Notes under the pieces: model-generated
Seen by the model: the letters and a program-made list of their open reading frames with translations, nothing else
Database searches by the model: none
What the model was told of the DNA's origin: nothing
IMG/VR virus record: IMGVR_UViG_3300042549_004702
Span: 1-60,420 of that record
Source of the DNA: a virus
Taxonomy: Duplodnaviria; Caudoviricetes
DNA length: 60,420 bases
Reading direction: 5' to 3' (one strand)
Part shown: one piece after another, positions 4,035 to 57,291 of the stretch
Numbering within the stretch: the stretch's first letter is position 1
Layout: each line of letters starts with the position of its first letter
Position numbers and translations under genes: made by a program

Positions 4035-4763
4035 TTAGAAACGGTACACGATGCCGTTCAGCAAAACGGCAGAGATCTCGGCAGTCTTGCCGATGCTGAG
4101 GTATCCCTCAGCAGACCAACTGCCTACCAGCCCATCCGCCGACAGCTCAAGATTATAAGCGTCGTCGGACGCCGCCATCTTATCGAAAAGCGCGGTGACG
4201 CTCTCCGCCGTGGTTTTGTGCATTGATCGCCACTCGTCGGTGGCGAAAGCAACGGTCTCGATCAGCTGGGCAGCGCGGCCCACTGGCAACTCCTCGATCG
4301 TCTCAGGTTCGTCCTCCTCGCAGCCGACGAAACCAGCGTGCCGGAACACGGCAACCTTGCGGACGCTGCCGTCCGGCTGCGTCTGATCAACGCTCTCCCG
4401 GACGCTGAAAGCGTACATAGGCGTGATCCCGTGCGCACGAAGGGCGGACTCGAGTGGGGCCATCAGGTACGGCGCGCCGCCGATCATGGCGTATTCGAAG
4501 CAGTTAGCCTCAGTGTGGAGCGGCTCTCCGGCCCACTCCTGGGCGTACGGCAACGCCGATTTTTCGCGCCAAATCGCGCAGCTCGCTATCTTGGCGATCT
4601 GCTGTGCCCTTTGCGCAACCTCGCTTGAGCTGGGCAGAGTCTCAAATGTCAGTAGTGAGCGAATTTCCATGATCTGCTCTGGGGATAGCTCCCCTGAGGT
4701 CACTCCGGCGGCGATCTGCTCAGTAGTGGCGGTGTGCTGGGTAAGGTTGAGTATTCGGTTCAT
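4035..4763 (-). CDS. Csx20/Csx15-like Rossmann-fold protein (putative cOA ring nuclease) with C-terminal extension
   Basis: ILNLTQH...EQI, AMIGG, GITPMYAFSVRES...DGSVRKVAVFRHAGF resembles my recollection of the Csx20 consensus. Confidence 0.55.
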   Translation of the reverse strand: MNRILNLTQHTATTEQIAAGVTSGELSPEQIMEIRSLLTFETLPSSSEVAQRAQQIAKIASCAIWREKSALPYAQEWAGEPLHTEANCFEYAMIGGAPYLMAPLESALRAHGITPMYAFSVRESVDQTQPDGSVRKVAVFRHAGFVGCEEDEPETIEELPVGRAAQLIETVAFATDEWRSMHKTTAESVTALFDKMAASDDAYNLELSADGLVGSWSAEGYLSIGKTAEISAVLLNGIVYRF

Positions 4764-11662: not shown

Positions 11663-12534
11663 AGCTAACCAAGATCCTTAGCAGTCCGATTGCTTTTCAT
11701 CGATGCCTTGCAGAGTTGGCCGGGTCGGTGACATCTGGCTTGATGCTCAGTCAGGCCGTGTATTGGATGGGAAAGACCAAAGATCCGGATGGATGGTTCT
11801 GGAAGACTCAGGACGACTGGTTGGAAGAGACGATGCTCAGTCGAAAAGAGCAGGAATCTGCTCGTCGTCGGCTGAGAGAGATCACTTTTGAGGGGGAATC
11901 TTTGTGGTGTGAGCAGCTGCGTGGCGTACCGGCAAAGCTTTATTATCGAGTCGATATGGACATACTAGAACGCCTCTTAACGGCAGACCAGTATGCCCAA
12001 AAGGAGCAATCCAGTATGCCCAAAAGGGGCATACTAGAAAGCCCAAAAGGGGCATACAAGAACGCCCAAAAGGGGCATACATTCTTATTAGCAGAGACTA
12101 CTACAGAGACTACATCAGAGAGTACGGCAGAGAGTACGACAGAAACCACGGAACCGGCGCGCGCGCCGAGACCTCTTCACGTAGTCGAGAGTGCAGACAT
12201 TGACAGCTTAGGCGACGCATTCGACGAAGCCTACCCTGGCATGTTCAATCAGTGGGGAAAGCTGAAAGACATGCGTGAGCTTGTCAAACGCCTGAATGCG
12301 AATGCATCGCACGTACGAGAGTTTCCATCATGGCTCAAAAGAGCCTACCCCCTAAAAGCGAACAATCACTTTGCGTTCATGGATCTCTTCCCCGAGTTCG
12401 TGAAGCAGTCACCAAAGAAAGCGACTAAGCCTGTCTCCACTTGCGGCAAGTGTGATGCCGGGTACGTCGTCAACGATCAGGGGCTTGCGGCTAAATGCCC
12501 TTGCCAGTCACCACGTCAGGCCAAAGCAGTCTGA
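11659..12534 (+). CDS. Phage replication initiator (lambda O-like)
   Basis: LSQAVYW...WFWKTQDDWLEET wHTH; internal iterons; directly upstream of dnaB. Confidence 0.85.
   Translation: MKLTKILSSPIAFHRCLAELAGSVTSGLMLSQAVYWMGKTKDPDGWFWKTQDDWLEETMLSRKEQESARRRLREITFEGESLWCEQLRGVPAKLYYRVDMDILERLLTADQYAQKEQSSMPKRGILESPKGAYKNAQKGHTFLLAETTTETTSESTAESTTETTEPARAPRPLHVVESADIDSLGDAFDEAYPGMFNQWGKLKDMRELVKRLNANASHVREFPSWLKRAYPLKANNHFAFMDLFPEFVKQSPKKATKPVSTCGKCDAGYVVNDQGLAAKCPCQSPRQAKAV
11991..12080. repeat. Four 23-bp-period iterons, probable replication origin
   Basis: GCCCAAAAGG(G/A)GCA at 11995, 12018, 12041, 12064 inside the initiator gene. Confidence 0.85.
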
Positions 12535-15630: not shown

Positions 15631-16218
15631 ATGGTGCGCGTGATTCGCGATCAGGATATCGACGATCCGACCATCGAAGAATACGTGCACTTCCCAACGC
15701 CCGGACGCCTCGCGCCGTCTGTGCCAGTAGTGGCACAAGATCAGTCACAACCAGTGGCACAGTCAGTGGCACAAGCTCAGAATATCGAGTCTGTGCCCGT
15801 GACTGACTCGGTGGCACAAGGCCAAAATTCCGACCGTGTGACCAGCCCGTCACCGGTGGCACAATCGCCAATAATGCCGCCTGTGCCCGTGACACAACCA
15901 GTGGCACAGATACGTGTGTCACTAGTGGCACAACGGCCAAATCGGAGGTCATGTGCCACTAGTGGCACATTGGCGTTAAGGTCTGCTAAAATCAACAACT
16001 TACCGAAAGGCAAGTCTCACACTGTGCCACCACCAAAAATAGCGGGGCACGAGTGGCGACAAGCCGGTGCGGGATGGTCACTCTGGCGACGTGTGCCCAC
16101 AATTTCGGCGACAGGCAAGCGCACTTCTGAGCGCAAATATGTGCGATACATTACTCAGTCTGCAATCGAAAGGATCTACAATCGGAATGGAAAATCGAAA
16201 CCACAAACCAAGTCTTGA
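15631..16218 (+). CDS. Hypothetical protein with VAQ repeats and a basic C-terminal domain
   Basis: RBS present; the repeats coincide with a DNA 8-mer cluster. Confidence 0.6.
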   Translation: MVRVIRDQDIDDPTIEEYVHFPTPGRLAPSVPVVAQDQSQPVAQSVAQAQNIESVPVTDSVAQGQNSDRVTSPSPVAQSPIMPPVPVTQPVAQIRVSLVAQRPNRRSCATSGTLALRSAKINNLPKGKSHTVPPPKIAGHEWRQAGAGWSLWRRVPTISATGKRTSERKYVRYITQSAIERIYNRNGKSKPQTKS

Positions 16219-26797: not shown

Positions 26798-27218
26798 AAA
26801 GAAAGCTACAAAAGCAACGCCTAAAAAAGCAAAAGAAGCTCCGTGGCAAGATAGATTCTTGGAACTATTTGCTATCTCTTTAAACGTGGCTCTTTCTGCT
26901 CAAGGTGCTGGCGTAAATCGAACTACAGTTTATCGTGAAGCTGAACGCAACAACGATTTTGCTGATAAGTGGAACGAAGCTAAACAGTCAGCAATTGAAC
27001 GCCTTGAGGCCTCGGCTTATGATCGAGCGCATAAAACATCAGATACTCTCTTGATTTTTCTTCTCAAGTCTCACAAGCCGGGAATTTATCGAGAGACTCA
27101 TCACATACAGACAACTCAACTAAACATCAACTACGCAGACCTGACACAGCCGCAACTTGAGAGGCTCGCCAATGGTGAAGACCCAGCAACAGTCATATCA
27201 ACAAAACGCGATAGCTGA
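26790..27218 (+). CDS. terS: Terminase small subunit
   Basis: HTH GVNRTTVY, SDTLLIFLLK; directly upstream of terL. Confidence 0.8.
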   Translation: MSKKKATKATPKKAKEAPWQDRFLELFAISLNVALSAQGAGVNRTTVYREAERNNDFADKWNEAKQSAIERLEASAYDRAHKTSDTLLIFLLKSHKPGIYRETHHIQTTQLNINYADLTQPQLERLANGEDPATVISTKRDS

Positions 27219-28599
27219 GTTGGCGCGGCGCGAGTTGCTGAGGCGTGGTCGAGACGAAAGCTTCATCGATTTTGTCAACCGGATCAATCGTCGTTACGTG
27301 TGGTACAAGCACTGTCAGGTAATCGCAAACGTAGTCGAGCGCGTCGAGCGTGGCGATATTAAGCGGCTGATGCTATTCGTTCCGCCACGTCACAGCAAAA
27401 GCGAGACAATCAGCCGACTATTCACGGCATACTACCTGCGCAAACATCCGGATCAGTGGGTTGGCCTGACAAGCTATTCGGCCGATCTGGCATACGTTCT
27501 CAGCAAGGCGTCTCAAGAAAACTTCGTCGAGTCTGGCGGTGTACTCGATAGTCGGGCCGGAGCGGTGAAGCACTGGCAGACAAGCGCAGGCGGCGGACTG
27601 TGGGCGACTGGTATAGGTGGGCCTATCACCGGCAAAGGCGCAAATCTTGCGCTTATCGATGACCCACTCAAGAACGCTGAAGACGCCTCAAGCGAGGTCA
27701 TCCGCGAGAAGCAGAAGGAATGGTACAACTCCACGCTATACTCCCGACTTGAGCCAGGTGGCGCGGTAATCGTCATTCAAACTCGCTGGCATGAGTCGGA
27801 CATCAGCGGCTGGTTGCTCGATCAGGAAAGCGAAAGCCCGGAACACTGGCACGTTGTGAACCTGCCGGCCATCGCTGAGGAGCCGCGCCTATTGCCTGAT
27901 ACGTGCACGTCTGAGCCGGACTGGCGCAACATTGGCGAGGCTCTATGTCCTGAGCGATACCCGCTTCACCGACTCGAGCAGATACGCTCACAGATCGGCG
28001 GATACTTCTTTGATGCGCTATACCAGCAGAGGCCAAGCGCGAAAGAGGGTAGTCATTTCAAGGTAGGTCAGCTGCAGATTGAAGACGCTCATCCGGTGCT
28101 ACTACGCGAATGCCGAGCGTGGGATCTGGCCGCGAGTGCCGGCAAAGGTGACTACACGGCAGGCGTCAGACTTGGTGTTGATGCTGATGGCGTCTGGCAT
28201 ATCGTTGACGTGCGGCGCGGTCAGTGGGCACCTGATGAACGCGACAACGAGATGCGGCAAGCGTCACAGCTCGACGGGCCAAAGGTGCGCATCAGGCTTG
28301 CTCAGGATCCGGGGCAAGCTGGCGTCGATCAGTCACAGCGATTAACACGTATGCTCTCAGGCTTCCCAGTGCGGTCAGAGCGCGTCAGTGGCGACAAGTC
28401 TACACGTGCATCAGGCTTGGCATCTCAGATCAATGCAGGCAACGTAAAGCTCGTAAAGGGTGCGTGGAATGCGGCATTTATCGAAGAGTTCCGCCAGTTC
28501 CCACACGGCAAGAATGATGATCTTGTCGATTCTACTGCAGACGCATTCAACGAACTATCGCTGGCGAATCAGTTCTCACAAGGCAAGCTGCTTCGATAG
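27172..28599 (+). CDS. terL: Terminase large subunit
   Basis: PPRHSKS Walker A, LIDDP, QTRWH, WDLA, NDDLVD nuclease motifs. Confidence 0.95.
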   Translation: MVKTQQQSYQQNAIAELARRELLRRGRDESFIDFVNRINRRYVWYKHCQVIANVVERVERGDIKRLMLFVPPRHSKSETISRLFTAYYLRKHPDQWVGLTSYSADLAYVLSKASQENFVESGGVLDSRAGAVKHWQTSAGGGLWATGIGGPITGKGANLALIDDPLKNAEDASSEVIREKQKEWYNSTLYSRLEPGGAVIVIQTRWHESDISGWLLDQESESPEHWHVVNLPAIAEEPRLLPDTCTSEPDWRNIGEALCPERYPLHRLEQIRSQIGGYFFDALYQQRPSAKEGSHFKVGQLQIEDAHPVLLRECRAWDLAASAGKGDYTAGVRLGVDADGVWHIVDVRRGQWAPDERDNEMRQASQLDGPKVRIRLAQDPGQAGVDQSQRLTRMLSGFPVRSERVSGDKSTRASGLASQINAGNVKLVKGAWNAAFIEEFRQFPHGKNDDLVDSTADAFNELSLANQFSQGKLLR

Positions 28600-28676
28600 T
28601 TAATAGCTGATTGTCGAAAAGTTTCGATGTGCTATGATGCATCATCTGGTCGTGGTTCGTTGTTCCTTTCTGTGCG

Positions 28677-28710
28677 GCGGGGGTCTATGGAGACTCCCGC
28701 TTTTCCTTTT
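28677..28710 (+). terminator. Intrinsic terminator
   Basis: GCGGGGGTCT-ATGG-AGACTCCCGC followed by TTTTCCTTTT. Confidence 0.75.
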
Positions 28711-28806
28711 GGTACTTGCTTATCCGGCAACCTCATACTTATTGTAAATAAATAAACCGTCGAATAACTGATACTTGCCAAGCCCTGTCGGAAAAGAAAG
28801 GAGCTT

Positions 28807-30084
28807 ATGGCGTATCCAAGTTTTTCAGACGAGAAGATTGCGCGAATCATCGAGTGTTACCTGCGCAATAATCGAAACATTCAAAACACCAGCATCCAGC
28901 TTGAGGTGGGCTACAATGCAGTATCAAAGTATGTCCGCAAATGGCAAATGGGCCAGCTGTCCCACATCCAACTCCCACCATATTCAGACGCGCCGGTAGA
29001 AGTACGAGCGCAAATCGAGAACGTCGAGAGCATCAGCACTGGCGATATGCGACGGCAAATTGTATCGCTTCGAAAAGAACGTGATGATCTGATGCGAGAG
29101 CGTGAACAGCTGCAGAAGGTTGCAGCCTTCTTTGAGTTCGTCAAGGAAGCAAGGATGGTTGTGCCTGAGTGGGTGAGCAAGCGACCATCACGAGGCAGCA
29201 AATCGGCAATACCAACGGCTCTATTCTCAGACGTGCATCTTGATGAGGTAGTGAAGCCGGAGCAGGTCAACTTTGTCAACGCATACAATCGAGCCATCGC
29301 CGAAGAGCGCGTGAAGCTGTTCTTCGATAACACGCTTGAACTATCAAAAGACTACTTGCAAGGCTTCAAGTACGAAGGCTTCGTAATGCCACTTGGCGGC
29401 GATCTCTTCAGCGGCATCATTCACGAAGAGCTTGCAGAGACCAATGCAGCCACGATCTTTGAGAGCTTGCTTTACTGGGCGGAACCGATAGCATCAGGCA
29501 TTCGCAAACTTCGCGATACCTTCGGGCGAGTCTTCCTGCCCTGCGTGGTCGGCAATCACGGACGACGCAAGCACAAGCCGCACGCAAAGAATCGCGCGCA
29601 GGACAACTTTGATTACTTCTTTTGCCACCTGCTGAACAAGTTGCTTGCCAACGAAAAGGGCATTACTTTTGCCATATCAGAAGCCAGCGATCAGCCGTAC
29701 AATGTCTTCGATACTCGATACCTTCTCACGCACGGCGACCAGTTCAGAGGCGGCAGTGGCATTGCCGGAATGCTGTCACCGCTGATGATTGGTGACGCGC
29801 GTAAACGAGAGCGTGAAAGCGCAGTCCAGCGGCCTTACGACTACCTGGTGATGGGACACTGGCATCAGCTGGCATTCCTTCGCGGACTCATCGTCAACGG
29901 ATCGGTCAAGGGATATTGCGAGTACGCCTTTCAGTCGAACTTTCGATATGAGCCACCACGTCAGGCATTCTGGATCACTGACGCCCACCACGGTGTAACG
30001 ATTCAGGCACCGATTCACGTTGCCGCCAAGAACGAAAAGTACTCAGCCAGCACCGGCAATCAAGCGATAGTCTCTATGGGGTGA
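28807..30084 (+). CDS. Calcineurin-like metallophosphoesterase with N-terminal HTH and coiled coil
   Basis: SDVH, GGD, GNHG, THGD, GHWH. Confidence 0.85.
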   Translation: MAYPSFSDEKIARIIECYLRNNRNIQNTSIQLEVGYNAVSKYVRKWQMGQLSHIQLPPYSDAPVEVRAQIENVESISTGDMRRQIVSLRKERDDLMREREQLQKVAAFFEFVKEARMVVPEWVSKRPSRGSKSAIPTALFSDVHLDEVVKPEQVNFVNAYNRAIAEERVKLFFDNTLELSKDYLQGFKYEGFVMPLGGDLFSGIIHEELAETNAATIFESLLYWAEPIASGIRKLRDTFGRVFLPCVVGNHGRRKHKPHAKNRAQDNFDYFFCHLLNKLLANEKGITFAISEASDQPYNVFDTRYLLTHGDQFRGGSGIAGMLSPLMIGDARKRERESAVQRPYDYLVMGHWHQLAFLRGLIVNGSVKGYCEYAFQSNFRYEPPRQAFWITDAHHGVTIQAPIHVAAKNEKYSASTGNQAIVSMG

Positions 30085-30527
30085 AAATGACATCGAGGAG
30101 CAAAATTACAACCATCGAATCCGACGATCTCTTGACGTTTCGCGTATATCCAGAAAACAAGCGACTACACTTCGATGTATTTGTGTGGCCAAGTAGACGC
30201 AGGATGCGCGAGTACCTGAGAGAAGCAAGTCCTGGACTAAGCGTCTACCAGATACTGGCTTGTGTGCTATGGCCAACCAACGAAGCAGACCGTGCACGGA
30301 AGACTCAGCTTGGCGAGATCCATTTCAATAGACAGGACCTGGGGTCGGACACGATCTGTCACGAGGCTACCCACGCAGCCTTGAGATGGGCACGATATAT
30401 CGGCATTGATGTTGGCGAAGCAGGGGATGGCTCATCGGCTCCTGACTCCGAAGAGCTTGTCGCATACGCAGTCGGTACGATCGCGCACCAACTCGAGACT
30501 GTACTTGTCGATAAAAAGTACAAGTAA
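30081..30527 (+). CDS. HExxH metalloprotein
   Basis: CHEATH...EELVAY. Confidence 0.65.
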   Translation: MKMTSRSKITTIESDDLLTFRVYPENKRLHFDVFVWPSRRRMREYLREASPGLSVYQILACVLWPTNEADRARKTQLGEIHFNRQDLGSDTICHEATHAALRWARYIGIDVGEAGDGSSAPDSEELVAYAVGTIAHQLETVLVDKKYK

Positions 30528-30605
30528 CTTGTGGATTTTTATCAACGATGTCCTTGTGATGTAGTAATATCACAGAGCCTCATATGTTGAGGCGGAAAGG
30601 ACAAA

Positions 30606-31286
30606 ATGGAACTGACCACGTCACGACTGATATACCCAGACGCGCCTTCGGGATTGCTGTCTGGGTATTGTTCTATTTGCGGCCAGTACGACATCACGCA
30701 CTTCCACCGCAACGACCTACTGACTCCCACCTCGGCCAACCTCACGGCCATCTTCGACTTTCACCACGAGCACGTTTGCCGCTTCTGTTCCGCTATATGG
30801 CGAGAACCGAAGAAGTATCACCGTGCAATTTACGCCGATCACGAATCGGTGCTATTCCCCGTGATATCTGCGGAGACCGCATCATCGGAGCGTCCGTTAT
30901 GGGCCGACGTTATCCGGCAAATGCCGACAGACCGAGAGCGCGTTATCGTGCTCACCACAGATCCTAAGAAGCGAGTGTGGCCATTTGCGCGCATCAGCTC
31001 CGGTAATGTGGCGTGCATATACCTTCACGATCCATCGCGTGGAGTGTCGGGCAATACCTGGGTAGAGATAGCACGGCTGAGAGAATGCCTTGTGATCATC
31101 GAAGAGGCTTACGAGCTTGGATTTTCGAAGCCAGCGATCGAGGAGTCGCTATTCACGTCCTACAATCAACTACAGGCCGTAGGATTGGCCACAACAACAC
31201 GAATGGAGAAAGCCATATCATCGTATAGGGCCACTCCTGAATTCCTGCCTGCGCTCATTGTGGCGCAAAGAAAGGTAACACTATGA
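30606..31286 (+). CDS. csf1: Type IV Cas8-like large subunit
   Basis: Zn finger CSIC...CRFC, KKRVWP motif; first gene of the csf operon. Confidence 0.72.
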   Translation: MELTTSRLIYPDAPSGLLSGYCSICGQYDITHFHRNDLLTPTSANLTAIFDFHHEHVCRFCSAIWREPKKYHRAIYADHESVLFPVISAETASSERPLWADVIRQMPTDRERVIVLTTDPKKRVWPFARISSGNVACIYLHDPSRGVSGNTWVEIARLRECLVIIEEAYELGFSKPAIEESLFTSYNQLQAVGLATTTRMEKAISSYRATPEFLPALIVAQRKVTL

Positions 31287-32719
31287 CCACATCAAACACT
31301 GGGATAATCGCGCCGTACCGATTCACGGCAAAGGCCACATCCACGGTTGCCCACGGAGAAGCCGGAGCCAACTCGACCGGGGCCAATAACACGACACTCT
31401 TTGCCCGGGAGTTGACATTGCTTCAGCGTGACCAGCTCTCGTACAGCAGCGACAAGGCGCAAGCGGCGATTGAATCACTGATGAACGTGATGCCGATCAC
31501 CGAGTCGTCTGTCGAGTTCCTTCGAACGCTATCAGGCGGCGAATTGATCGCGACACTATTTGCTGCTCAATTTCCGATCATTTATCGCGGCGAAGGAGAA
31601 GGACTATTCGCCGGACTCGAGCGTTACCAGTACCTGACAACGCGCCTGACTGACTCAGCCGTAGCTTGCACTACGCTTGCAACTGCGTGGGCGTACGTCT
31701 CGCGAAAGCTGAATCTGACCGCGCCATCAGCCTCGGCGCATATGCCGTTGATGGCACTCTTTGCACTGCCGAAGCCGATACAGGCGGCTGCGCTTGCGTC
31801 AGTCCTGAAAGCTCCTGAGATGGTCGTTATGGGCGCGCGAATGCTAGCCGAAGGACTCAAGGCCACTAACTGGAAATACGCAGAAGCCGCAGATCGAGAG
31901 ACCGAAGAGAAGGCTCAGTACAACGTGACATCTACGCAGCTTCTCGAGTTGTCGGCGAATAGGGGCAGCGTGCTAGCCGTGCGAATCCCTGCGATATCGG
32001 GCAACTCGCTTCGCCACAACATACTACGCGCACCAGGTGCGACGCGCCTTTTGTCGCATCTTGGACTTGGGCCGAATCAAACAATGGTACCGATCGCCGT
32101 TGAGCGGTTCCTGTACTCTGGCGGCAACACCGTCAAGGGCGCGAAGGCTCCGGGGGCGGCGGATCTACTAGAAGCAAAGGTGCGTAGTCACTATCCGATC
32201 GTTGACGCACTTGGCGGATCGTTCGATATGTTCCTGCTCACTCGGTCGCAGGTCAGCGTAAATAGCTGGATAGTATGCCGGGAGAATAACTGGATCACGG
32301 AGCGTAAGACAGAGGGAAGCATCGGATCCGATGTATCGATCTTCGATCTTATCAGCGAGGTGACACGTACTCGGTCAGGCATTGGCGGCAAGGACAAGGA
32401 GTCGGGACAGATGATCTTTGCCTACGAAGCTTTGGCCGCTCAGACAGAGATACTTGTAGAGGTCAGCTTCCAGCCATACACGCAGTTTGTCACGATTGGC
32501 GCGGTGATGCAGGCGTTGACGGACTGGAACACGGAAGGCGCGTTTCTTGGCGCGAAGTCGGCGCAGGGGCACTCGCAGTGGTTGCCAGACTTCCCGGATG
32601 ATGATCGATGGGCACTTGCTGCCGACTACATCGCACACCTCGACAAGAACCGAGAGACGTTGCGCGATGGACTCATCAAGGCCACATTCGGAACGGAGGT
32701 GCAGCTTTGTGGAGCGTAA
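31283..32719 (+). CDS. csf2: Type IV Cas7 backbone with a ~180-aa insertion
   Basis: STVAHG...NTTLFARE, IPAISGNSLRH, LYSGG, TRTR, QMIFAYE, LGAKSAQGH. Confidence 0.88.
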   Translation: MTTSNTGIIAPYRFTAKATSTVAHGEAGANSTGANNTTLFARELTLLQRDQLSYSSDKAQAAIESLMNVMPITESSVEFLRTLSGGELIATLFAAQFPIIYRGEGEGLFAGLERYQYLTTRLTDSAVACTTLATAWAYVSRKLNLTAPSASAHMPLMALFALPKPIQAAALASVLKAPEMVVMGARMLAEGLKATNWKYAEAADRETEEKAQYNVTSTQLLELSANRGSVLAVRIPAISGNSLRHNILRAPGATRLLSHLGLGPNQTMVPIAVERFLYSGGNTVKGAKAPGAADLLEAKVRSHYPIVDALGGSFDMFLLTRSQVSVNSWIVCRENNWITERKTEGSIGSDVSIFDLISEVTRTRSGIGGKDKESGQMIFAYEALAAQTEILVEVSFQPYTQFVTIGAVMQALTDWNTEGAFLGAKSAQGHSQWLPDFPDDDRWALAADYIAHLDKNRETLRDGLIKATFGTEVQLCGA

Positions 32720-33447
32720 TGCACATTCCAGAGCTTGACGAGTATGGCGATCGTATAGCGGCTCTCGAGTATGAGCCGCTCAAGGTCACGGTGACGACGG
32801 ACTCGCCCGTCAGCTGCAATGATCCGATATCGCTTGACGGAGTGTTGGCATACGCAATGGTCACGGATGCACTCAAGGGACGGCCTTTTCCGCAAGGAAA
32901 GGGCCCATACTGGCAGCCGCTTCCGCTCCATTGCGCAAAGCTGATTGAGGGTTTGCCGCTATGGTCAAGTACCGACTTTGTACCGACCAACCTTCACAAG
33001 CGAATGACTCACATCCACAGACGGACGGCGGATAACCCGTACGCAATGATCGGCCTGATGCGATCTGCCTACGACAAGCGACCGCGCCGCTTCCCGTCTT
33101 CGGCCGCGGGGCCGTATATGGACTATCGAGTACCAGAGCGTCGTTACGTCGCGGAGTCGTGGTCGGCATTGTGTCTCGGCAATCTTGAAGAGGTGCGACG
33201 ACTTCTCACGCTTGTTGCGACTTTTGGCAAAGGCGGCAAGCGTGGGTCGGGATACGTTCGGCAATGGACGGTTGAGCCGGTCGCAGACTTTTCATTCTAC
33301 ACGCACGATGGCCGCGCTTTGCGCCCAGTGCCTATTGGTGCCACTGAAACAGCGTGGGCAGGGGTAAGGCAAGGGTGGACTCCTCCCTACTGGCTCAAGG
33401 AAACGTGGCTGCTTTGTCAGCCGTCAGATGTGGCATCGATATTATGA
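32719..33447 (+). CDS. csf3: Type IV Cas5
   Basis: LDGVLAYA, PLPL, Gly-rich FGKGGKRGSGYV, RPVP, PPYW. Confidence 0.85.
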   Translation: MHIPELDEYGDRIAALEYEPLKVTVTTDSPVSCNDPISLDGVLAYAMVTDALKGRPFPQGKGPYWQPLPLHCAKLIEGLPLWSSTDFVPTNLHKRMTHIHRRTADNPYAMIGLMRSAYDKRPRRFPSSAAGPYMDYRVPERRYVAESWSALCLGNLEEVRRLLTLVATFGKGGKRGSGYVRQWTVEPVADFSFYTHDGRALRPVPIGATETAWAGVRQGWTPPYWLKETWLLCQPSDVASIL

Positions 33448-34247
33448 GCATTGTGAGCTGGGCCGATTACGGAATTACGGGTGAGGTCACGGTTGGACGA
33501 CCGGCAGCGGCAGCACCCTACAAGCGTCAGATTCAGCGACGCATCGACAAGGCATTGTCGGACATTGACCGCTTGGCCGTCTCCACAGACGGCCATTTTT
33601 ACTCGGCAATATCATTCGGTGCTGATTCGCTGGTCGCTGATCATCTGATGCGCCGCTACTATCCCGATCATCCGGCAATGTGGGTCAATCAAGGGCCGCT
33701 TGCTGAATGGCCTGACTGCCTGGCACTCAAGGATCAGATGGTAGCCAACGGTCTGCCGCTGGTCGAGTTGACACCGGACGTCACGCTCTACGATTGGTAT
33801 CGATTACACGGCATCCCGACGTCTTCGGCAATGGATAGCAAGGACGACAAGGAGCTGAACGAAGCGTTGATGTACGCGCCTATCCGGCGATACCAGGAGT
33901 CATCGGCGGCGCGTGGCTACTTGTGGGGGCTGAGGTATGATGGCGAAGGCAACCATCGTCGGATACTGATCCAAAGTCGAGGCACGCTATATCATCGAAA
34001 GACCGATGGTCAGTATGTGTGCTCTCCCGTCGGTCACTGGAGCAAGCACGAGATATGGGCATACATCGACCTGTTTGCGCTGCCCTACGCGAAGATGTAC
34101 GACATTGACCGACTCGAGATCCGCAACGGGCCGCCAATCGGCACAAGCGCGTTGAATATGGGGCGAATCGTGAAGCTGAAGCACAACTTCCCGCATATTT
34201 GGCGAGTAGCTGTCAGTGAGTTTCCCGAGTTGCAGAGGTACACGTGA
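33444..34247 (+). CDS. cysH: CysH/PAPS-reductase-like protein (type IV-B signature)
   Basis: SFGADS PP-loop variant, WGLR, SPVGHWSKHEIWAYI, LPYAKMYD. Confidence 0.85.
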   Translation: MSIVSWADYGITGEVTVGRPAAAAPYKRQIQRRIDKALSDIDRLAVSTDGHFYSAISFGADSLVADHLMRRYYPDHPAMWVNQGPLAEWPDCLALKDQMVANGLPLVELTPDVTLYDWYRLHGIPTSSAMDSKDDKELNEALMYAPIRRYQESSAARGYLWGLRYDGEGNHRRILIQSRGTLYHRKTDGQYVCSPVGHWSKHEIWAYIDLFALPYAKMYDIDRLEIRNGPPIGTSALNMGRIVKLKHNFPHIWRVAVSEFPELQRYT

Positions 34248-34813
34248 CGCCACCGTACAAAATCATAATGCGATCGCATCCGGATAGAGATGACCTTGTT
34301 GAGCAGATAAAGCCGCTACTGCCTGAAGATTCGATGTATAGCAGAGATTCCGCTCGTGAAGGTGGACGAGTAAACTTCATCCGCGCTATGACTATGGCTG
34401 AGGGTGACGCTTGCTTGCATCTTGAGGACGATATCATCCTTTGCCATGACTTCATCGACAACGTGAACCGTGTAGTAGAGTATCGCCCAGGTACGGTGAT
34501 TCAGTTCTTTTCGCGAAGATCGGCAGACATTGACATAGGGTCGCGATACGAATCAGGACGCACCTTTTTAGGCGCGCTTTGCTTTTTCTTGCCGTGTGGA
34601 ATGTCACGCGATTTGTTGAACCATTGGCCAGCGTGGAAGGACAAGGACAAACACTTCGACGCGGTCGATTTATTCGTTGCCGACTACCTGAAAAACCAAA
34701 AGCTCAAGTACTGGATCGAGATTCCTTGCTTGGTTCAGCATCGACAGGTCGTGTCAGTCGTCGATAGTCGTCGATCCAAGTACCGCCAGACATCTACCTT
34801 TCTTGGCGAATAG
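34244..34813 (+). CDS. GT-A fold glycosyltransferase-like protein
   Basis: CLHLEDD, PCLVQH; GTGA overlap with the cysH stop. Confidence 0.7.
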   Translation: MTPPYKIIMRSHPDRDDLVEQIKPLLPEDSMYSRDSAREGGRVNFIRAMTMAEGDACLHLEDDIILCHDFIDNVNRVVEYRPGTVIQFFSRRSADIDIGSRYESGRTFLGALCFFLPCGMSRDLLNHWPAWKDKDKHFDAVDLFVADYLKNQKLKYWIEIPCLVQHRQVVSVVDSRRSKYRQTSTFLGE

Positions 34814-34863
34814 CTCACCACTCGCCCGAAAAATTATTCTCGCGACTATCGCAATCTTGCGAT

Positions 34864-36294
34864 ATGAACAGCGAGAGCAACAAAAATTCACCCGCCTATC
34901 ACAACGAAGCTCACGACGAGATGGAGCGTCGGTGGGACATCATCGAAGCCGTATCAGGTGGTACGCTTGAGTTACGCGATGGTGGCGCAAAGTGGCTACC
35001 GCTCGAGCCTGCCGAAGACCAGCGCGATTACGCTATCCGGCTTCGTCGGGCAATATTCTTCAACGCCTTCGAGCGCACGTTGCACGGACTTGTTGGACTC
35101 GTGTTTCGCAAAGATCCCGAGCTTGCCGATGATAATCCCGATCGAATCAAAGAGCTCTGGGAGAACATCGACAATGCCGGAACACACGGCGCAGTCTTTG
35201 CCAAGGAAGCGTTCACGATTGCGTGTAAGTACGGTCATTCGCTGATCTATGTCGATATGCCGCCAGCACTGCCGGAAGGCGCAACGCTTGCCGATGAGCG
35301 CGCCGCCAATCGTCGCCCTTACTGGGTGATGTATGAGCCGGATCAGATCGTCAACTGGCGCGTCGAGTCAGTCAACGGGCAGTCAATGGTGACACTGCTT
35401 GTGCTAGAGGAAGAGACAAACGAGCCTGACGGTCTGTACGGTGAAGAGGAAGTGACGCGGTACCGAGTACTTAGACCGGGATACTGGGAGCTGTTCCGCG
35501 AAGTCAAGAATGATCTGACAGGGGCTACAGAGTACTTGCTCGAGGCTACTGGCGCGTCAAGCCTGCCGTATATCCCCGTCTCAGTGATCTATGCTCGAAA
35601 GACTGGCACACTGACCAGCACCCCGCCATTGCTTGATCTGGCACTGATCAATCTCGCGCATTACCAGAAATACTCAGACTACTCAACGTACCTGCATATC
35701 AGTAGTCGTCCGATCCTATGGTTTCGTGGACGCGATATCAGCAAGGGAGTTGAGGCCATCGGCCCGTACACGTTCTTTGACGTTGACGGCACCAACGGCA
35801 ACGTCGGATTCGCAGAGACCAGCGGCGCGGCACTTGGCGCAGCTAAGGCGGACATTGACCATCTTGAGAAGCAGATGGCAATGCTTGGATTGACGCTACT
35901 TGCCGGCAACAAACCAGTACAGCAAACAGCTACTGAAGCATTGCTCGACTCAGTCAAGGAAGAGTCGGACTTGGCAACCGCTGCCAGATCGCTACAGGAC
36001 GCGCTAGAACTGGCTTTGCATTGCACGGCAGCCTATGAGGGCATCGAGTCCGGCAGCGTGGCTCTTGGCTCAACTATGACCGATTTGACGCTATCGCCTG
36101 AAGAGATGCGAGTGTGGATTGACAGCGCAGACAAGGTGTTCTCGAAGAACACGATCTACGAGGTATTCAAGCAGGCCGGTAAGTTGCCTGATGGCTTCAA
36201 CGCAGATCAGGAACGGATTGCTATTGAAGCGGATGCCTCAACGATGGGCGATCAGCTACTCGCAGCTTTCGACCAAGGTAAACCGATAGCGTAG
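34864..36294 (+). CDS. Portal protein (DUF4055 type)
   Basis: WLPLEPAE...Y-x-x-RL-x-RA, PPLLDLALINLAHYQ; position before the scaffold gene. Confidence 0.9.
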   Translation: MNSESNKNSPAYHNEAHDEMERRWDIIEAVSGGTLELRDGGAKWLPLEPAEDQRDYAIRLRRAIFFNAFERTLHGLVGLVFRKDPELADDNPDRIKELWENIDNAGTHGAVFAKEAFTIACKYGHSLIYVDMPPALPEGATLADERAANRRPYWVMYEPDQIVNWRVESVNGQSMVTLLVLEEETNEPDGLYGEEEVTRYRVLRPGYWELFREVKNDLTGATEYLLEATGASSLPYIPVSVIYARKTGTLTSTPPLLDLALINLAHYQKYSDYSTYLHISSRPILWFRGRDISKGVEAIGPYTFFDVDGTNGNVGFAETSGAALGAAKADIDHLEKQMAMLGLTLLAGNKPVQQTATEALLDSVKEESDLATAARSLQDALELALHCTAAYEGIESGSVALGSTMTDLTLSPEEMRVWIDSADKVFSKNTIYEVFKQAGKLPDGFNADQERIAIEADASTMGDQLLAAFDQGKPIA

Positions 36295-36386
36295 AAAAGT
36301 TATCGACCTGACGTGACGTAACCTTCAACCCATAACCCACGAAGCGGGATGCTTCGTAATCACTCATCCGGGAGGGATGATTCCAA

Positions 36387-37172
36387 ATGCCAATAGAACA
36401 GATATTTGATACTCGCGATGATGCGCCGGAGTTTCTCAGAGGATCTTTGCTCGAGACCGAAGACGGGAAGTTCAAGTTTCAGGCAGAGCTACCACAAGAG
36501 GTCGGCGGACTGAAGAAGGCACTCGACGCAGAGCGCAAAGCACGCGCCGAATTCGAAGGCAAGCTGAAGCAGTATGACGGCGTAGACGTTGAAAAGTACC
36601 AGTCGATACTCAAGCAGCAGGAAGAGGCCAAGGCGCAGCAGGCGCGATCTGCCGGAGACTGGGAGACGCGAGAGACACAGCTAAAAGCGCAGCTCGAAGC
36701 GGATCTACGCAAACGAGAAGCGCACTACACATCAGAGTTAACTGGACGTGACGCGAAGATTACGTTGATGCAGTCAGCCCTTGAGAAGTCGCTGATCGAA
36801 GCGCAGGCAACATCCGCGATCTCGGCGGCCAAGGGAACACCAGAGTTGCTGCTGCCTCACGTAATGCAGCGAGTCAGGATTGTTGAGGAGGACGGCGATT
36901 ATCAGGTGCGAGTGATCGATCAGAACGGTCAGCCGCGCATCGCCGACATAAAAGGCACTCCATTCACGATCAAGCATTTGATCGAAGAGATGAAGGCCGA
37001 TGCGATTTATGGACGGGCTTTTGAGGCGTCCGGAGCGGGAGGCTCTGGTGCGTATAACAGTAACAAAGCGGGCGGCAACGCCAAGACAATGAGCCGTGGA
37101 GCTTTTGACGCACTCTCACCAGAAACTAAAATGGAGTTCATCAAAGCAAAGGGGCAAATTTCAGATCAGTAG
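36387..37172 (+). CDS. Capsid scaffolding protein
   Basis: GLKKALDAER coiled coil, GAGGSG tail; precedes the capsid gene. Confidence 0.8.
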   Translation: MPIEQIFDTRDDAPEFLRGSLLETEDGKFKFQAELPQEVGGLKKALDAERKARAEFEGKLKQYDGVDVEKYQSILKQQEEAKAQQARSAGDWETRETQLKAQLEADLRKREAHYTSELTGRDAKITLMQSALEKSLIEAQATSAISAAKGTPELLLPHVMQRVRIVEEDGDYQVRVIDQNGQPRIADIKGTPFTIKHLIEEMKADAIYGRAFEASGAGGSGAYNSNKAGGNAKTMSRGAFDALSPETKMEFIKAKGQISDQ

Positions 37173-56616: not shown

Positions 56617-57291
56617 TTAGACCAGCAGCAGCCCGTAGCCAAACGCTTTGCCCGTGCCTATACCATCGCATAGGGCAAGCCTGAAGTCGTCAGCGTTGGT
56701 GACGCGAAGTGTTCCGGCAAAGTCGATGCTGGTGAAGGTCATTCGACGGTCGCCATATCCGCTGAGGCTCGATGCGGTCACGAGCTGGCGACCGATCTTG
56801 TGTTCAGGCTGTCCGCACTTGCTGAGATGGAGAACCTCAAAGCCTGACTGTTCAGACTTGCGCTTGAGCCAGTCGTGCCAGCCGGACTCGTCTCTGATGG
56901 CGACTCGCTTTCCGTTGATGCCGTTCTTGCTGGATAGTCGCTTGGTGGGATTGCCGCGAAGGAGGAAGGGCATTACCTCGTCAGTGGTGATAGCGTCGTA
57001 CCTGGAAGCGATGCTGGCGCACGACGACTCTTCGATATTGTCGAAGTAGTCGAACGGTATACCATTGGCAGACCAGTCAGGCAGGATGCGTGACTGGACG
57101 ATGATCCGCGGGCGGTGGAGAGTGTCGTCGGTCTCGAGTCGATAGAGGACTCCGAAGTGGCGGCGTGACTCTTCGATGTTCGGCATCTCCGGGAAGGCGC
57201 GCATCAGTCGCCGATGAAGCGCGTGACAGTCTTCAAGCTCCATCTGTACGATGCGCCGTGTGTGGTTTGGGTATAAAACCGAGACGAACAA
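56617..57291 (-). CDS. cas6e: Type I-E-like Cas6 (Cse3/CasE) endoribonuclease
   Basis: HALHRRLMRAFP, VLYRLE, VQS-x-x-x-PDW, LRGNPTKR, WLKRK, G-loop GIGTGKAFGYGLL. Confidence 0.92.
   Translation of the reverse strand: MFVSVLYPNHTRRIVQMELEDCHALHRRLMRAFPEMPNIEESRRHFGVLYRLETDDTLHRPRIIVQSRILPDWSANGIPFDYFDNIEESSCASIASRYDAITTDEVMPFLLRGNPTKRLSSKNGINGKRVAIRDESGWHDWLKRKSEQSGFEVLHLSKCGQPEHKIGRQLVTASSLSGYGDRRMTFTSIDFAGTLRVTNADDFRLALCDGIGTGKAFGYGLLLV

Follow-up and report, generated by a model that had tools for sequence, protein, structure and literature searches.

The 60,420-nucleotide (nt) record IMGVR_UViG_3300042549_004702 from a tailed phage (Duplodnaviria; Caudoviricetes), taken here as a whole and called the window, carries a type IV-B CRISPR module whose Csf2 protein holds a Cas11 domain inside its Cas7 fold. 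The gene, which we call long csf2 (31283..32719, + strand), encodes 478 amino acids (aa). In the reading that we favour, with a probability of roughly 0.8, the internal Cas11 domain supplies each backbone subunit with its own small subunit. The architecture is conserved in a large, mainly phage-borne clade. No description of a Cas11 inserted in Csf2 was found in the article texts searched, and the only type IV fusion named in the cited passages is csf1-csf3 in subtype IV-E (PMC8175902, PMC7038947). Type IV-B is a class 1 subtype whose function is still listed as unknown in reviews (PMC11127173, PMC13676074).

A Csf2 protein with an interrupted Cas7 fold

The product of long csf2, 478 aa in length, belongs to type IV-B Cas7 (Csf2). 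It is matched by the PADLOC typeIV_Cas7 model PDLC01572 with an expectation value (E) of 2.1e-26, and by three further type IV Cas7 models of the same collection. Since the PDLC01572 match is limited to aa 232-464 (profile positions 42-275 of 280), about 190 residues stand where the profile has almost none. An abnormal spacing of this kind was the starting point of the original prediction, and the translation of 31283-32719 bears it out, with the Csf2 motifs NTTLFARE (aa 36-43) and IPAISGNSLRH (aa 235-245) standing about 190 aa apart. The insert, which had been placed at 31427-31966, is exactly aa 49-228, and the Ala/Leu-rich string singled out within it is found at aa 115-145. The short distance between the two motifs in ordinary Csf2, stated in that prediction, is also confirmed: it is about 11 residues in five phage Csf2 proteins of 280-284 aa, which are collinear with the long form on both sides of a gap of about 180 columns. 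The solved Mycobacterium Csf2 (7jhy_e) likewise falls on both sides of the gap: its residues 17-51 match profile positions 7-42, in a weak N-terminal alignment, and its residues 58-136 match positions 229-312.

In the AlphaFold model of the whole protein (predicted local distance difference test, pLDDT, 83.1; predicted template modelling score, pTM, 0.64), DSSP assigns strands to residues 12-18 and 40-48, only helices from 56 to 224, a strand to 230-238, and then the remaining Cas7 fold. The first two strands belong to an N-terminal Cas7 segment (aa 1-48, 31283..31426, +), which aligns with the N-termini of the short Csf2 proteins and carries the invariant residues H24, N36, F40 and R42. The remaining Cas7 fold (aa 229-478, 31967..32719, +) opens with the strand that bears IPAISGNSLRH. 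The Cas11 domain is predicted to occupy the turn of an N-terminal beta-hairpin, between the strand that ends near aa 48 and the one that starts near aa 230. When the whole model is searched with Foldseek, 29 PDB chains are found at E≤0.001. The top 27 are type IV-A Csf chains, the best of them the IV-A Csf2 7xg1_F (E 8.6e-8), and a type I-A Cascade chain, 7tr6_J, stands at rank 28; the IV-B chain 7jhy_a is found at E 1.8e-3. N36, an invariant Asn of the long family, is weakly aligned with Asp42, the putative catalytic residue of Mycobacterium Csf2, and the short phage Csf2 proteins have Asn there as well. Another invariant residue of the long family is H24.

Homology of the insert to Cas11

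Between the two Cas7 parts lies the helical insert (aa 49-228, 31427..31966, +), which consists of a Cas11-derived domain and two linker segments. Its Cas11-homologous core (aa 72-208, 31496..31906, +) contains the conserved motif G-x-G-L-F-x-G-x-x-R-Y-x-x-L-x-x-R at aa 105-121. That the insert is a Cas11 inside a Cas7 fold had been proposed from composition and spacing, and homology to type IV Cas11 is now established at the level of family profiles. A profile was made from 19 inserts (the window and 18 viral loci), cut by coordinates and then aligned. Run against all PDB sequences, it has as its top match 7jhy_h, labeled “Csf4 (Cas11)” (E 1.8e-4, 24.1 bits), in a collinear alignment (positions 69-156 versus 69-154 of 162), and the whole-protein profile matches the same chain (E 0.0048). 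Nine of the 19 inserts are matched directly by the PADLOC typeIV_Cas11 model PDLC01695, with a best E of 4.2e-9.

A search of 1.84 billion representative proteins with the same insert profile gave 211 matches at E≤1e-3. The best 150 of these (clusters at 50% identity) comprise 91 long forms, 42 free-standing proteins of 117-190 aa, and 17 partial or other entries. All 42 free-standing proteins are complete and match from their second or third residue, at E 1e-19 to 1e-31. Fifteen free-standing Cas11-like proteins were aligned into a second profile, and 12 of them match PADLOC typeIV_Cas11 models. Comparison of the inserts with these 15 by hhalign gives a probability of 100 and an E of 4.5e-41 over 135 columns (insert residues 24-160), and the motif invariant in the inserts is the one invariant in the free-standing proteins. 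The free-standing profile also matches the open reading frame (ORF) of the window itself, with E 3.3e-20 in a search of frames and E 5.1e-22 at 31583-31918 in a search of the whole record. The free-standing proteins match insert-profile positions of about 26-157 out of 179, and the insert has extra helices at both ends.

Folding the insert alone, a check proposed at the outset, gives a 10-helix bundle (AlphaFold, aa 49-228, pLDDT 90.9, pTM 0.88). Its best PDB match in Foldseek is the IV-B Cas11 chain 7jhy_g, at a template modelling (TM) score of 0.57 by target length. The root-mean-square deviation is 3.8 over 125 columns and the E is 1.4, which is not significant alone; all other matches have TM scores of 0.30 or less. 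The type IV Cas11 helix arrangement is described as distinct from that of other small subunits (PMC7937560), which fits with 7jhy_g being the only fold match of the insert. In BFVD, the three best fold matches of the insert are viral proteins of 137-155 aa, unnamed or oddly named (probability at least 0.99, TM by target 0.49-0.68, E 0.01-0.26); these are probably phage Cas11 proteins.

Split and fused forms in phages

A degenerate DNA pattern for the shared Cas11 motif, searched against viral contigs, gave 23 loci: 12 of the long form (many from contigs already in the set), six split, one ambiguous (L046), and four without a Cas11-profile match. In the six split loci a cas11 gene encoding 140-162 aa comes directly after csf1. 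One of them, L047, ends after cas11, and the other five (L038, L045, L049, L052 and L053) have the order csf1-cas11-csf2-csf3 with a Csf2 of 280-284 aa; a cysH-like gene is present in L038 and L053. In these five loci, the Cas11 proteins give E values of 1e-28 to 1e-38 with the insert profile. Judged by this gene order, the free-standing proteins closest to the insert are products of genuine cas11 genes, which belong to canonical IV-B operons carried by phages. The idea of a fusion independent of type III-E has also held up, since the genes most closely related to the insert are cas11 genes of type IV, located between csf1 and csf2. No type III-E chain is found among the four PDB profile matches of the insert at E≤10, and the PDB holds type III-E chains. 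Single free-standing proteins, used as queries against the viral loci, gave no match. Four pattern loci (L033, L037, L039 and L048) were set aside as likely chance matches, as neither Cas11 profile matched them; in L037 there is a single weak BLAST match, to the neighboring exonuclease-like gene. The ambiguous locus L046 has a 289-aa ORF (1776-2642, +) whose Cas11 domain is C-terminal (aa 158-275) and in which BLAST finds no Csf1 match; either its start is over-extended or it is a different fusion, perhaps csf1-cas11.

The long form recurs widely. In a collection of 5.8 billion proteins 59 homologues were found; they match the protein from end to end, at identities down to 30%, and 56 of them measure 456-488 aa. 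Ten residues of the insert are invariant among 29 sequences (down to 28% identity): G105, G107, F109, G111, R114, Y115, L118, R121, L132 and K193. These end-to-end homologues and invariant residues argue that the long ORF is not a product of chance or assembly. Full-length long-form genes are present in 29 independent loci. IMG/VR contains 26 long-form loci, and species-representative genomes contain six, in metagenome-assembled genomes (MAGs) labeled Proteobacteria, Chloroflexota-type (four) and Microbacterium. A tblastn search with the 478-aa protein found no match in deposited phage genomes (INPHARED) or plasmids (PLSDB), and in the collections searched the family comes only from metagenomic viral contigs and MAGs. 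In all 22 IMG/VR loci that extend to csf1, this gene is directly upstream of long csf2, the two being no more than 88 nt apart; csf3 or cysH follows downstream, in either order. A divergent relative, L050 (4869-7833, +), has a long csf2 at 26% identity that is preceded by a gene for a 533-aa protein with a Csf3 match; this protein may be a Cas8-Cas5 fusion in an altered gene order.

Absence of a separate cas11, of arrays, and of a conserved Cas6

If the internal domain replaces Cas11, loss of the separate gene is expected, and the original prediction had stated that the operon has none. When the whole record is searched in six frames with the free-standing profile, the single match is that at 31583-31918, inside csf2. 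The same holds beyond the window: a separate cas11, whose presence beside the insert had been named as grounds for abandoning the idea, is found in 0 of 33 insert-bearing loci (the window and L001-L032). The count covers every stop-to-stop frame of 40 aa or more (6,260 in total), searched with both the insert and the free-standing profiles; no frame other than those of long csf2 matched at E≤10. There is no CRISPR-like array in the window, nor in 57 sources totaling 635 kb. A full-length Cas6e-type endoribonuclease is encoded at 56617-57291 (-), about 23 kb from the csf module (PADLOC Cas6e E 1.8e-40, with weak typeIV_Cas6 matches). It was considered as a conserved partner of the module and rejected, being present in 0 of 5 related virus records searched, two of which are at least 90% complete.

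Phylogeny of the two forms

Two trees were built, both of them unrooted. The tree of the Cas11 domain takes in 92 inserts and 48 free-standing proteins, with the 17 partial or other rows left out. On it, 47 of the 48 free-standing proteins fall together to one side of a branch that has a Shimodaira-Hasegawa-like approximate likelihood ratio test (SH-aLRT) support of 97. Two changes of state are needed on this tree, and the well-supported branches force only one. The tree of the Cas7 core, from which the insert was removed, has 82 long forms (those outside 440-500 aa were left out) and 10 short forms, and took 5 of the 120 listed short homologues. Here the long and short forms split on one branch (SH-aLRT 100). 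The best 120 of 352 matches listed for short Csf2 are all 63-100% identical and include no outgroup, which is why the trees are unrooted. Both trees are consistent with one ancient insertion of Cas11 into Csf2. The insertion is taken as the derived state because Cas11 is a separate gene in other class 1 systems; it is also reported to be separate in IV-B and IV-C at large, the distant Mycobacterium system among them (PMC7937560, PMC13676074).

Genomic environment of the module

The phage record is classed as linear, with a CheckV completeness of 94% in IMG/VR. The csf1, long csf2, csf3 and cysH-like genes form a translationally coupled module between the large terminase gene (27157-28599, +; Pfam Terminase_6N/6C) and the portal gene (34864-36294, +; phrog_145, E 3.7e-115). 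Between the large terminase and csf1 there are two further genes on the + strand, one for a 425-aa phrog_284 “exonuclease” and then one for a 148-aa protein containing HExxH. The first gene of the module, csf1 (30606..31286, +), encodes a small Cas8-like large subunit of 226 aa (PADLOC typeIV_Cas8 PDLC01721, E 7.1e-10), and its stop codon overlaps the start of csf2 in an ATGA junction. A TAATG overlap joins csf2 to csf3 (Cas5; 32719..33447, +). The longest csf3 ORF opens at 32608 and matches PADLOC typeIV_Cas5 PDLC01727 over its aa 54-270 (E 5.7e-28); the product also matches NCBIfam cas5_csf3 at E 4e-12, under the cut-off of that family. The likely start is the ATG at 32719, with a one-base overlap with the csf2 stop, and alignments of csf3 homologues begin at residue 39 of the long ORF.

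The cysH-like gene comes next (33444..34247, +; Pfam PAPS_reduct E 2.4e-9; phrog_424). Genes of this kind are accessory genes typical of subtype IV-B. Its ORF is open from 33354, and we infer a start at M31; homologues align from residues 33-36 of the ORF. Directly after cysH there is a gene for a 189-aa glucosyltransferase-like protein (34244..34813, +; phrog_854, E 5.4e-10). A 24%-identical homologue follows cysH in L013 (10415-11038) and in L054, which are one and the same contig, of a distant relative, and the gene may encode an extra, swappable accessory enzyme of such modules. Among the ten ORFs from 27157 to 37172, no match to helicase families (DinG, RecD) was found. An IV-B-like module among packaging genes (terminase, phrog_284, the 148-aa protein and portal) is seen in the window (27157-36294) and in closer relatives such as L005 (2895-17232) and L002 (5822-14723), which is an unusual site for an accessory module. 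Elsewhere in the window, a 242-aa protein (4035-4763, -) has a weak Csx20 match (PADLOC PDLC01384, E 1.7e-6, aa 84-146). Four 23-nt tandem repeats, iteron-like, are present at 11959-12073, and three 45-nt repeats opening with GTGGCACA at 15766-15908; neither set is CRISPR-like.

A model for the fused protomer and its alternatives

In the solved IV-B complex (7JHY), six Csf2 subunits form the backbone on RNA and five Cas11 subunits form the belly, each of them on a Csf2-Csf2 interface (PMC7937560). The Asp42 loop of Csf2 is near the path of the target strand and corresponds to the type III catalytic loop (PMC7937560). In the long form, as far as the weak alignment goes, the equivalent of this loop immediately precedes the T-L-F-x-R strand, and the insert comes after that strand. 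Because the insertion point is only a few residues past the catalytic-loop equivalent, the tether would emerge from the Cas7 core on the side that Cas11 usually occupies. A model can be proposed on this basis. The Cas7 parts would polymerize along RNA as they do in the solved complex, with each protomer bringing its own Cas11 module to the belly side. Owing to the covalent link, the minor filament would form in an obligate 1:1 Cas7:Cas11 ratio, and no separately expressed small subunit would be needed. Csf3 and Csf1 would cap the filament, and the CysH-like protein would be an enzymatic partner in a role still unexplained.

Several observations weigh against this reading. A filament, its binding to RNA and a minor filament at 1:1 are all predictions of the model. 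Where the Cas11 domain sits with respect to the Cas7 core is not confidently predicted (pTM 0.64 for the whole protein versus 0.88 for the domain). No Pfam family matches the whole 478-aa protein at E≤0.1 (Pfam gives nothing for Csf1 or Csf3 either), and the sole NCBIfam match, TIGR03115 (cas7_csf2), scores 12.6 bits against a cut-off of 130 and is located outside the insert. The window's own insert has no PADLOC Cas11 model at E≤0.1, so that its link to Cas11 runs through family profiles, by transitive homology. In the Cas11-domain tree, one free-standing protein, P0173, sits among the inserts. Finally, with the trees unrooted, the direction of change (insertion or fission) would rest on Cas11 being separate elsewhere.

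Some of these points would suit a domain that derives from Cas11 and is no longer a small subunit. It might, for instance, dock the CysH-like enzyme or another phage or host factor, or it might block target binding; the complex would then work unlike a double-filament class 1 effector. The uncertain placement of the domain leaves room for such a role, as do the helices at either end of the insert, which free-standing Cas11 does not have, and a subtype whose function is unknown and whose solved complex binds heterogeneous RNA (PMC7937560). We nevertheless consider a repurposed domain unlikely, as the invariant motif common to inserts and free-standing Cas11 argues for a retained common function, and the separate cas11 has been lost in every insert-bearing locus, as expected if the domain replaces Cas11. 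The history could also be read backwards, with the long form ancestral and the csf1-cas11-csf2 order of the closest phage relatives produced by fission. A single change on unrooted trees could indeed run either way, but fission would have to yield an upstream cas11 together with a re-joined, intact Cas7, which takes more steps than an insertion. Separate Cas11 is moreover general in IV-B and IV-C, and the Mycobacterium Cas11 still aligns with the insert, which makes fission highly improbable. It is harder still to credit that the insert is an unrelated helical domain resembling Cas11 in composition, or that the ORF results from a merge in assembly or gene calling. Helical Ala/Leu-rich segments can give spurious weak profile matches, the window's insert is only indirectly tied to the PADLOC models, and a search of the ESM Atlas with the insert gave no usable match. 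Against this stand the hhalign result, with its shared invariant residues, and the order of the domains: Cas7 strands precede the insert, an arrangement that simple read-through from cas11 into csf2 cannot give. The architecture also recurs, in 91 of the best 150 clusters at 50% identity and in the 29 independent full-length loci, and both variants of this explanation are effectively refuted. The reading that remains favoured is that of a Csf2 whose internal Cas11 serves as its small subunit.

A further step may be imagined, though it is speculative and we would not bet on it. The tethered Cas11 would make Csf2 a self-sufficient RNA-coating protomer that works without a CRISPR guide, so that together with the CysH-like enzyme it would act as an offensive or counter-defence device of the phage. 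If so, the filament might capture or mark host RNAs, such as CRISPR RNAs or defence transcripts. The placement among late genes, which is inferred from the terminase and portal neighbors, would time the module with packaging, and with the fusion IV-B would have moved away from guided interference towards a phage function that needs no guide.

Implications

The small subunit has survived a drastic rearrangement without loss of its invariant motif, which suggests that it is indispensable to these complexes. The long Csf2 is in effect a natural construct of fixed stoichiometry, and should ease the reconstitution and cryo-electron microscopy of a complete IV-B complex; the solved one lacks Csf1 and Csf3. 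The joining of Cas7 and Cas11 by domain insertion would be an independent case, separate from the end-to-end fusion of type III-E, and it bears on how multi-subunit effectors become compact. The presence of IV-B modules beside phage packaging genes points to a function on the side of the phage.

Comparison with known systems

The canonical IV-B system, that of Mycobacterium sp. JS623 (7JHY, PMC7937560), has csf1, csf2, csf3 and a cysH-like gene in common with the present locus, and likewise no CRISPR array. Its Csf2 and Cas11 are the best or only CRISPR matches of the two parts of this protein, at an identity so low that it is detectable by profiles only. The canonical system has a separate cas11 gene and is found on a megaplasmid, whereas here Cas11 exists only as a domain of csf2, and the module sits in a tailed phage, flanked by the terminase and portal genes. 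The solved complex contains six Csf2 for five Cas11, while the covalent link here forces 1:1. The locus is a variant of IV-B rather than a canonical member, as it has all the genes that define IV-B except a separate cas11. The split phage IV-B loci (L038, L045, L049, L052 and L053) are the nearest relatives of both halves of the protein. In them cas11 is free between csf1 and csf2, and split and fused forms are on opposite sides of a single, well-supported branch in both trees.

Cas7 and Cas11 modules are likewise found in one polypeptide in type III-E Cas7-11 (gRAMP) and in the fused effectors of III-D and III-Dv (10.1101/2024.02.23.581838, PMC11026444). Those effectors are arranged head-to-tail, with several Cas7 domains and one Cas11, and replace a multi-subunit filament. 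In contrast, the present protein has a single Cas7 with one Cas11 inside its fold instead of between Cas7 domains, measures 478 aa, is accompanied by separate csf1 and csf3 genes, and would still need to polymerize.

In type I-F2, Cas7 and Cas5 carry extra domains that take on the role of the small subunit. These domains are not known to be homologous to Cas11. The type I-F2 (I-Fv) Cascade, which is described as being without Cas8 and Cas11 (PMC12956352), has one idea in common with the fused Csf2, namely that the backbone subunit supplies the small-subunit function. Compared with type I-F2, the inserted domain here is demonstrably a homologue of Cas11.

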